Source: Escherichia phage T5_ev219. Taken from it: 64,000 nucleotides of DNA. The notes beneath the pieces are model-generated. The model saw nothing but the letters and a program-made list of their open reading frames with translations, searched no databases and was not told where the DNA came from. A program made the translations under genes and the position numbers. Of the stretch, positions 14,730 to 15,751 are shown piece by piece. The stretch lies in the sequence record NC_134263.1. One strand, written 5' to 3'. Position 1 is the stretch's first letter. Each line of letters starts with the position of its first letter.

Positions 14730-15206
14730 TCACATCTCAGCCATTTCAGCTTCAGTAATAACTGTGTTACACAGTGCATCTACAGCTTCATTACCACTAA
14801 TACCAGAATGTCCTTTAACCTTAATAAAGGTAGGATTAGTATTATGAAAGTTGATATACTGCTGTGTTAATTTAAATGCTTCCTGCCAAAGTTCTAGATT
14901 AAGAGGAACTTCACCATCTGCTTTCTTCCAGCCTTTCCTTTGCCAAGAAAACATCCAACTTTCCATACCATTTTTGCAATAAGCAGAATCAGTATAGATA
15001 GCAATTGGTCTATTATCTTTTTTAACGGACCAACGTAGAGCTTCTACAATAGCTGTGAGTTCCATCTCATTATTTGTAGTTTTAGGATTATAACCAGATT
15101 TAGAACCTAAACGATCGTCGTTATCATCATAGACAATAAAACCCCAAGCACCTGGACCTGGATTAGATTTACAAGCACCATCTGTGTAAATGTGGAAAAC
15201 GCTCAC
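14730..15206 (-). CDS. rnhA: ribonuclease HI
   Basis: IYTDGACKSNPGPGAWG, catalytic E in MELTAIVEAL, IYTDSAY, KVKGHSGISGNEAVD motifs. Confidence 0.85.
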   Translation of the reverse strand: MSVFHIYTDGACKSNPGPGAWGFIVYDDNDDRLGSKSGYNPKTTNNEMELTAIVEALRWSVKKDNRPIAIYTDSAYCKNGMESWMFSWQRKGWKKADGEVPLNLELWQEAFKLTQQYINFHNTNPTFIKVKGHSGISGNEAVDALCNTVITEAEMAEM

Positions 15207-15751
15207 TTATTAAGTTCCTCTATTGGTGGGTAATAGTTGGTATAGAAATCTTCTATAACTGCTTCGCTACCATGAAGTGTTTTTCTTAGTTTATTAGCCT
15301 TTATGACCGCACTTTCTAGGTCTAAGTAGTCAAAAACACCCCCGTAAATATTTTTACCATTATTATCAATCACCTGTACTTGCCATTTCTGTAGTTGTTT
15401 GTTCCAGTGTACACCTAGATATCCAGATTTACTCGATGTGGTACAATTTCTGTTATTAGACTGGCTTGTAGCTTCTCTTAGATTTATCCACCTATTATCT
15501 GACCTAATTCTATTTTTGTGGTCTATTAAATCAGGTATTGATCCTGTCATATATAGAAAGGCTAACCTATGCGCTAAATAATCTATTTTATCTATCTTAA
15601 TAGTTATATATCCGTCTTTTCTTAGGTATCCAGCTGGCGAACCTGCTTTTCCTCCCCTACCACGACTTACCTTATTAGTAAATATACCAGTATCTGGATC
15701 ATAGATTAGTAGTTCTTTTAATCTTTCTTGGCTAGGTAACTTTTTACTCAT
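15203..15751 (-). CDS. HNH homing endonuclease (HNH plus AP2-like DNA-binding domain), copy 1
   Basis: YLAHRLAFLYMTG...IDHKNR...DNR..NLR and SGYLGVHW; about 50 percent identical to ORF 37804..38334; overlaps both neighbours. Confidence 0.75.
   Translation of the reverse strand: MSKKLPSQERLKELLIYDPDTGIFTNKVSRGRGGKAGSPAGYLRKDGYITIKIDKIDYLAHRLAFLYMTGSIPDLIDHKNRIRSDNRWINLREATSQSNNRNCTTSSKSGYLGVHWNKQLQKWQVQVIDNNGKNIYGGVFDYLDLESAVIKANKLRKTLHGSEAVIEDFYTNYYPPIEELNK

Follow-up and report, generated by a model that had tools for sequence, protein, structure and literature searches.

The DNA analysed here, to be called the window, is a stretch of 64,000 nt from Escherichia phage T5_ev219 (sequence record NC_134263.1), read as one strand, 5' to 3'. 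A first-pass annotation of this stretch had singled out two open reading frames, at 15203–15751 and 37804–38334, as paralogous homing endonuclease genes of the HNH/AP2 type. Both reading frames are present at these coordinates, and we have named them heg1 and heg2. heg1 occurs in locus 1, in the order thyA, hyp127, heg1 and rnhA; heg2 occurs in locus 2, between a helicase gene and a primase gene. The features of both loci are as follows.

14730–15206, minus strand: rnhA (RNase H; Pfam RNase_H, E = 3e-32), the downstream neighbour of heg1
15201–16146, minus strand: variable cassette of hyp127 plus heg1, delimited by homology break points and a slot survey of 27 loci
15203–15751, minus strand: heg1, predicted free-standing HNH-AP2 gene (ORF of 182 aa)
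15215–15220, minus strand: GAGGAA, a Shine-Dalgarno-like motif in the "EELN" codons of heg1, 8 nt before the GTG of rnhA
15744–16127, minus strand: hyp127, an acidic ORFan of 127 aa (PHROG 26840)
16147–16227, minus strand: thyA terminator hairpin plus early-promoter-like module, the upstream bound of the cassette (27-locus alignment, inverted repeats)
36284–37807, plus strand: DnaB-like replicative helicase (T5 D6), upstream of heg2 (Pfam DnaB_C; T5 annotation)
37804–38334, plus strand: heg2, predicted free-standing HNH-AP2 gene (ORF of 176 aa)
38316–38322, plus strand: GGAGGAG, a Shine-Dalgarno motif in the "EELN" codons of heg2, 8 nt before the ATG of the primase gene
38331–39221, plus strand: DNA primase (Toprim plus CHC2 zinc finger; Pfam), downstream of heg2
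38348–38414, plus strand: patch of mostly silent substitutions in primase codons 6–28 (+18 to +84), which segregates perfectly with occupancy of the site

The overlaps of a few nucleotides with both flanking genes, noted in the first pass, are real and amount to 4–8 nt at all four junctions. The stop codon of the upstream ORF (hyp127) overlaps the ATG of heg1 by 8 nt, while the stop codon of heg1 (TGA) overlaps the GTG start of rnhA by 4 nt (GTGA). At locus 2, the helicase stop and the ATG of heg2, and likewise the stop of heg2 and the ATG of the primase gene, overlap by 4 nt (ATGA in both cases). The identity of the neighbours (rnhA, DnaB-like helicase, primase) was borne out by Pfam. All flanking genes are complete and uninterrupted, so that heg1 and heg2 are ORFs in their own right, located outside any intron or intein. 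Scans for promoters and terminators around the two endonuclease genes gave nothing above shuffled expectation, i.e., no promoter or terminator of their own was detected by this means.

The two proteins are 57% identical over 177 aa (BLASTP, E = 3e-69), in keeping with the earlier estimate that they share about half their residues. A tblastn search of the 64-kb window yielded no third paralogue. We considered whether the pair had arisen by a recent duplication within the genome, but rejected this in view of a pS of 0.77 and of the closer relatives that each gene has at the same site in other phages. Judging from their saturated synonymous sites, heg1 and heg2 are old lineages. The heg2 protein is 100% identical to a protein of Salmonella phage Tennessee, and heg1 is 97–98% identical to genes of many phages. 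The window belongs to a Tequintavirus, a relative of T5 and BF23. Both loci, together with a 25-kb stretch, match Tequintavirus/Epseptimavirus phages at about 96–99%; over 25 kb, T5 and BF23 are about 96–97% identical to the window.

Both proteins match the Pfam family HNH_3 (PF13392) well above its curated cut-off of 24.8 bits (heg1: 51.4 bits, E = 8e-14; heg2: 46.2 bits, E = 3e-12), and both match PHROG 99, "HNH endonuclease" (heg2: E = 6e-61). The HNH half of the HNH/AP2 assignment is thus confirmed by Pfam. The AP2 half was not recovered by Pfam from single sequences (PF00847: heg1, 14.5 bits, E = 0.046, against a cut-off of 33.3 bits; heg2, no match), and a single-sequence search of solved structures returned only a weak ApiAP2 match (E = 0.74), but it did emerge from profile comparison and from the predicted fold. 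In a profile built from 89 homologues, positions 104–161 match the AP2 domains of WRI1 (E = 7e-9) and TEM1 (E = 2e-4), and positions 37–117 match I-HmuI (1u3e; E = 1e-6). At the level of profile and predicted structure, the C-terminal part of the proteins has the AP2 fold, i.e., a three-stranded sheet packed on a helix. The window proteins also have the beta-beta-alpha-metal fold with the conserved catalytic His and the metal-binding Asn/Asp: D77, H78, N90 and N99 are shared without exception by the 89 sequences, both window proteins included. The predicted architecture is that of a small N-terminal beta domain, followed by an I-HmuI-like His-Me (HNH) nuclease core and then by an AP2 DNA-binding domain. 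Full-length reading frames are present in all alleles compared, and pairwise dN/dS between alleles ranges between 0.05 and 0.34, well below 1 across the whole protein. By these sequence measures, heg1 and heg2 are intact genes under selection, which specify a predicted nuclease–AP2 fusion. The family to which they belong is widespread (4842 places in 2969 phage records), and T5-like genomes carry up to 8–14 copies each, at different loci.

The first-pass annotation had proposed a comparison of the same loci in related T5-like genomes, and this revealed presence/absence polymorphism at both of them, neither gene being universally present. It had also described the genes as wedged into operons, a picture that fits locus 2 as it stands but not locus 1, where a two-gene cassette occupies a hypervariable slot. 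At locus 2, 374 of 444 related phage records (about 84%) are without the insert, which only the other 70 cover, and the helicase/primase site is also empty in 18 of 27 IMG/VR loci. In the empty allele, helicase stop and primase start share an ATGA in a precise junction, and the insert constitutes an exact indel of 527–530 nt with ATGA at both ends.

The occupied site holds at least three divergent types of allele: the window type (about 10 records), the T5 type and the NR01/VAH1 type. These alleles have the first ~33 residues and the C-terminal tail in common, yet they are only 65–72% identical overall. Compared with T5 at the nucleotide level, heg2 is 40–74% identical in its core (37904–38303), against 84–98% in the first 100 nt of the gene and 96–100% in the flanks. 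As read from these alignments, the HNH and AP2 core is swapped between heg2 and T5 hegJ inside a fixed site. The endonuclease genes are, in general, sharply bounded islands of divergence in surrounding DNA that is 90–100% identical. The locus-1 allele of NR01 is nearer to locus-2 alleles (66–69%) than to heg1 (61%), which implies exchange between the two loci.

The strongest evidence at locus 2 lies in the primase gene directly downstream of heg2. Over the 67 nt of the patch, genomes with the endonuclease gene (HEG+) differ from the consensus of genomes without it (HEG-) at 8–16 positions in 21 out of 21 cases, while HEG- genomes differ at 0–2 positions (20 out of 20). The separation was complete between ten HEG+ and eighteen HEG- genomes, albeit with a Mann-Whitney p (4e-6) that is indicative only and not a true probability, since the HEG+ genomes are related to each other and hence not phylogenetically independent. 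Eleven HEG+ genomes added later have 11–16 patch differences each, and one added HEG- genome has none. The association involves eight patch haplotypes and three endonuclease core types. Among IMG/VR contigs, 19 contain the exact HEG- core of the patch, and each of these is HEG-. Primase positions +50, +65 and +68 are altered throughout the HEG+ genomes. Outside the patch, the primase gene (788 nt) is equally diverged in the two groups (HEG+, 3.7%; HEG-, 3.2%), and on the helicase side of heg2 we found no comparable occupancy-linked excess of substitutions.

Such a patch, just downstream of the insertion, is what a homing endonuclease would be expected to leave behind, and we take it for the putative target site, immunity region or co-converted tract of the enzyme at locus 2. 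In part, it could also be a translation-initiation region of the primase gene that was re-tuned after the upstream sequence had changed. Copying of the patch from a distant relative was considered as well and rejected for the sampled genomes: there is no clear donor, identity to distant genera ranges between 0.55 and 0.82, and these genera match the HEG+ patch no better than the HEG- consensus. Patch haplotype and core type are not tied to each other: a single haplotype is combined with each of the three cores, and three haplotypes are found alongside the T5-type core. This suggests that cores were exchanged while their surroundings stayed resident. Among HEG- genomes, variation in the patch is unusually low (0.7%, versus 3.2% for the rest of the primase gene).

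At locus 1, about 35 of 442 phage records contain the rnhA-side endonuclease gene together with its partner ORF. In phage FFH1 (L002), homology with the window extends to 15200 and is found again from 16147 onwards; in between, 301 bp with an unrelated ORF of 93 aa take the place of the 946-bp cassette. Across 27 loci, the interval between thyA and rnhA varies from 134 bp (T5, no ORF) to 1147 bp, with at least seven different contents. The variable slot begins immediately 3' of the -10 box in a conserved promoter-like element, which itself follows the thyA terminator, and it ends at codon 2 of rnhA. The promoter after thyA, which we read by eye from the alignment and which is annotated, along with a terminator, at this thyA-downstream module in the BF23 record, did not rise above chance in a consensus promoter scan of the module.

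A palindrome with 22-nt arms that are 95% complementary and 7 nt apart (16157–16207, minus strand) covers the promoter-like element and borders on the terminator hairpin of thyA (16204–16223). Relatives with other slot contents keep the palindrome with different arms (GAAATTGTAC/GTACAATTTC versus AAATTTCA/TGAAATTT), implying compensatory change. In one relative (L092:1353-2126), a GIY-YIG-type gene of 257 aa overlaps the thyA stop, and a second one (L095) has an internally deleted remnant of the same gene in the thyA–rnhA slot; the slot therefore hosts two unrelated classes of nuclease and shows decay.

Occupancy of locus 1 is also reflected in the first two codons of rnhA, which are GTG AGC in the window and ATG TCG in all genomes without the endonuclease gene. 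In an alignment of seven HEG+ and 20 HEG- alleles, the codon for Ser2 is AGC or AGT, not TCG, in every HEG+ genome, by which the xTGA stop/start overlap is created. Beyond rnhA codons 1–2, no occupancy-linked silent patch was found for heg1 in rnhA or in the 3' end of thyA, and the changes in these two codons are also needed for the stop/start overlap itself. In the NR01-type allele of locus 1, rnhA is divergent along its whole length.

The partner ORF, hyp127, lies directly upstream of the HNH gene at locus 1 in 35 of 35 phage records, and the rnhA-side endonuclease gene, conversely, is in no case present without it. It is confined to T5-like phages, with only 35 clusters among 5.8 billion proteins, and it has no Pfam match; its predicted model (pLDDT of 55, from a shallow alignment) is unusable. 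No genome among the 35 records has hyp127 without the endonuclease gene and, for that reason, an empty site for heg1 alone was not observed. On this distribution, the mobile unit at locus 1 is a two-gene cassette of hyp127 plus heg1.

Between the window and BF23, the endonuclease gene is 65–81% identical in nucleotide sequence, while hyp127 and the flanks are 90–100% identical (94–100% for hyp127). In a Logan contig (L120), identity drops from 100% in hyp127 to 62% in the endonuclease gene and 76–87% in rnhA, to return to 98% thereafter. As far as can be read from these profiles, the boundary between hyp127 and the endonuclease gene is a recombination break point. Identical copies of hyp127 adjoin endonuclease alleles that are only 62% alike.

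Both window proteins end in ...EELN(K/S), a tail that, among 120 homologues, is restricted to four T5-like alleles located at the two sites. The Shine-Dalgarno-like motifs listed above are encoded by the EELN codons, and the Shivani record carries an annotated ribosome-binding site at the place of the heg2 tail. The start of heg2, in turn, relies on the stretch that, where the site is empty, lies ahead of the primase gene. The tail motif probably acts as the ribosome-binding site for the downstream gene, and the endonuclease element would in this way appear to preserve the translational coupling of its essential neighbours.

Ever since the deposition of the T5 genome, these genes have carried the annotation of putative HNH homing endonucleases, and the elements described here are of a known kind. 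The rnhA-side gene is known as hegE in BF23, and the gene between helicase and primase in T5 is hegJ, "putative H-N-H-endonuclease P-TflX", where "P-" stands for putative; the Shivani record mentions "HNH and AP2/ERF" domains. T5 hegJ (T5.120; AY543070 69614-70147) has the same insertion site between D6 helicase and primase as heg2, the same ATGA overlaps, N-terminal ~33 residues and C-terminal tail, and the same primase silent patch, but the two proteins (177 aa and 176 aa) are only 65% identical. On sequence grounds, heg2 is the positional counterpart of hegJ, and it is doubtful whether it is a simple orthologue. BF23 hegE (BF23_00109, OR083247) has the same position as heg1, between a 127-aa ORF and rnh, with the same overlaps. 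The 127-aa ORF of BF23 is 95% identical to hyp127 (pS of 0.04), while hegE and heg1 are 82% identical in amino acid sequence and saturated in synonymous divergence (pS of 0.80). By this comparison, hegE and heg1 are different old alleles in a nearly identical context.

HNH-AP2 proteins are a recognised class of homing endonuclease genes, which cluster near replication genes and shuffle domains (PMC10448857; the family goes back to Magnani et al. 2004, as cited there). heg1 and heg2 share with this family the N-terminal HNH and C-terminal AP2 domains, their presence in phages in multiple copies and their location beside essential replication genes. The "IPA-HNH" proteins of ICP1 are distant relatives, too divergent to be detected by Pfam HNH_3 (PMC10448857), unlike heg1 and heg2, which match it. 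I-HmuI and I-BasI (Bacillus phages SPO1 and Bastille) are nicking HNH enzymes encoded in introns (a group I intron for I-HmuI), while heg1 and heg2 are free-standing, with no group I intron and no split host gene found for either of them. I-HmuI, which nicks one strand near its insertion site (PMC3017599), has C-terminal helical/HTH modules where heg1 and heg2 have an AP2 domain.

[quoted passage not shown] The Seg enzymes are GIY-YIG proteins, unlike the HNH-type heg1 and heg2, and the F-Tfl enzymes are located in the tRNA region and have demonstrated cleavage activity, where that of heg1 and heg2 is predicted. For these systems, the target lies in a neighbouring conserved gene, polymorphism protects the carrier and the flanks are co-converted (PMC2330249, PMC3326045). 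In T5, nine HNH enzymes have been predicted, of which F-TflI, II and IV were tested (PMC3326045), and local differences between T5-like genomes stem mainly from homing endonuclease genes (PMC10644984).

In all, heg1 and heg2 are very probably free-standing HNH-AP2 homing endonuclease genes, for which cleavage and homing are predicted. The footprint of such elements, recognised in the first pass, is corroborated at the sequence level by the empty helicase/primase site, the primase patch and the presence/absence polymorphism. The analysis establishes the protein architecture, the intact catalytic residues, purifying selection, polymorphism, the precise empty site, the occupancy-linked patch and the sharp boundaries of divergence; cleavage, be it a nick or a double-strand cut, its exact target and homing itself are predictions.

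By analogy with I-HmuI, the T4 Seg/Mob enzymes and the T5 F-Tfl enzymes, homing would occur when a T5-like phage with the endonuclease gene and one without it infect the same cell. The enzyme would then nick or cut the genome lacking the gene at a long site in the conserved gene that adjoins the insertion point; for heg2, the most likely place of this target would be the initial ~85 nt of the primase gene. Repair by recombination with the genome carrying the gene would copy the endonuclease gene, along with some flanking DNA, into the other genome, while silent substitutions in the target site would spare the carrier genome from being cut. The cost to the phage would be kept low by a seamless, translationally coupled insertion, in which the endonuclease gene would take over the original start context of the downstream gene, and its last codons would supply a new Shine-Dalgarno sequence to the latter.

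A more elaborate and rather improbable reading combines two further ideas, namely that the endonuclease genes are modular site-holders which exchange cores via homology arms, and that hyp127 is the functional partner of the endonuclease. The arms would be the conserved 5' ~100 nt and the 3' tail with the neighbour's ribosome-binding site, and whole nuclease plus AP2 cores would be exchanged between paralogues by means of them. If true, one specificity would succeed another as cores are exchanged, and an arms race would run between the enzymes and the silent-site immunity patch of the primase gene; hyp127 would be, e.g., a modulator, an immunity factor or selected cargo, which would make a two-gene homing cassette of the unit at locus 1.

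It is unlikely that the enzymes are kept mainly for the benefit of the phage rather than as selfish elements, whether by excluding competing T5-like markers, by degrading host or competitor DNA, or by stimulating recombination-dependent replication. Such a role would fit with the purifying selection on both genes and with their location, translationally coupled, inside early replication operons; another T5 HNH gene, hegG, does damage host DNA when expressed (10.64898/2026.04.02.716235). However, about 84–92% of the related records do without either gene, and the silent patch linked to occupancy suggests that the target lies in the genomes of sister phages, not in the host. Marker exclusion is, moreover, mechanistically the same as homing, so that this alternative differs from the homing reading in the beneficiary and not in the action of the enzyme.

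The invariance of the catalytic D-H...N...N positions, the full length of all alleles with dN/dS well below 1, and the silent patch in the neighbouring gene, which implies ongoing or recent cleavage pressure, make it very improbable that the genes are decaying or domesticated relics devoid of nuclease activity, e.g., AP2-based regulators of the adjacent operons, even if they sit at operon junctions and AP2 is a DNA-binding module that has been reused elsewhere as a transcription factor (PMC10448857). The least probable alternative, with hardly any chance of being correct, is that the enzymes are the nickases that make the site-specific single-strand interruptions of T5/BF23 virion DNA: specific nicks are present in the DNA of both phages (PMC10644984) and I-HmuI, the closest solved structure, is a natural nicking enzyme (PMC3017599), but we rejected the idea on distribution, since a group-wide trait should have a shared gene while most T5-like phages lack both, T5 (L099) is without heg1 and has no ORF in its slot, and the BF23 allele is different.

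The homing reading of heg1 and heg2 comes with several leads, i.e., primase codons 6–28 as a predicted target, the swapping of cores, the EELN tail as a ribosome-binding site and the obligate 127-aa companion, which could guide the first biochemistry on the T5 "P-Tfl" enzymes. For the engineering of T5-like therapeutic phages, they could help to judge which junctions tolerate insertions.

Further observations concern other sites of the window. The gap between nrdB and nrdA (18743–18848; 106 nt) has no insert in the window, while T5 and contig L121 carry an HNH gene there (P-TflVIII in T5), a further case of presence/absence polymorphism. An ORF of 165 aa (41844–42341, plus strand) is placed between the genes for DNA polymerase (8-nt overlap) and D10 helicase (4-nt overlap) in the junction style of the endonuclease genes, but it matches PHROG 4386, where no function is assigned, and it has no match to a nuclease family in PHROGs, the only resource searched for it. 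A strong terminator-like hairpin of 13 pairs (8 of them G-C) followed by a T run occurs after the D5-like gene (36270–36298, plus strand); it overlaps the first codons of the helicase ORF as listed (ATG at 36284), whose true start or transcription context may consequently differ. The primase–polymerase spacer (39222–39283 in the window) lacks, as in T5 and FFH1, an extra ORF of 330 nt that is present between the two genes in BB1 and VAH1 (L005:2222-2551, L006:2752-3081). Finally, a YbiA/NADAR-like gene ("swarming motility protein"), absent at the corresponding window position (~14368–14410), is inserted in Shigella phage SSP1 (L003:568-1017) and several others.
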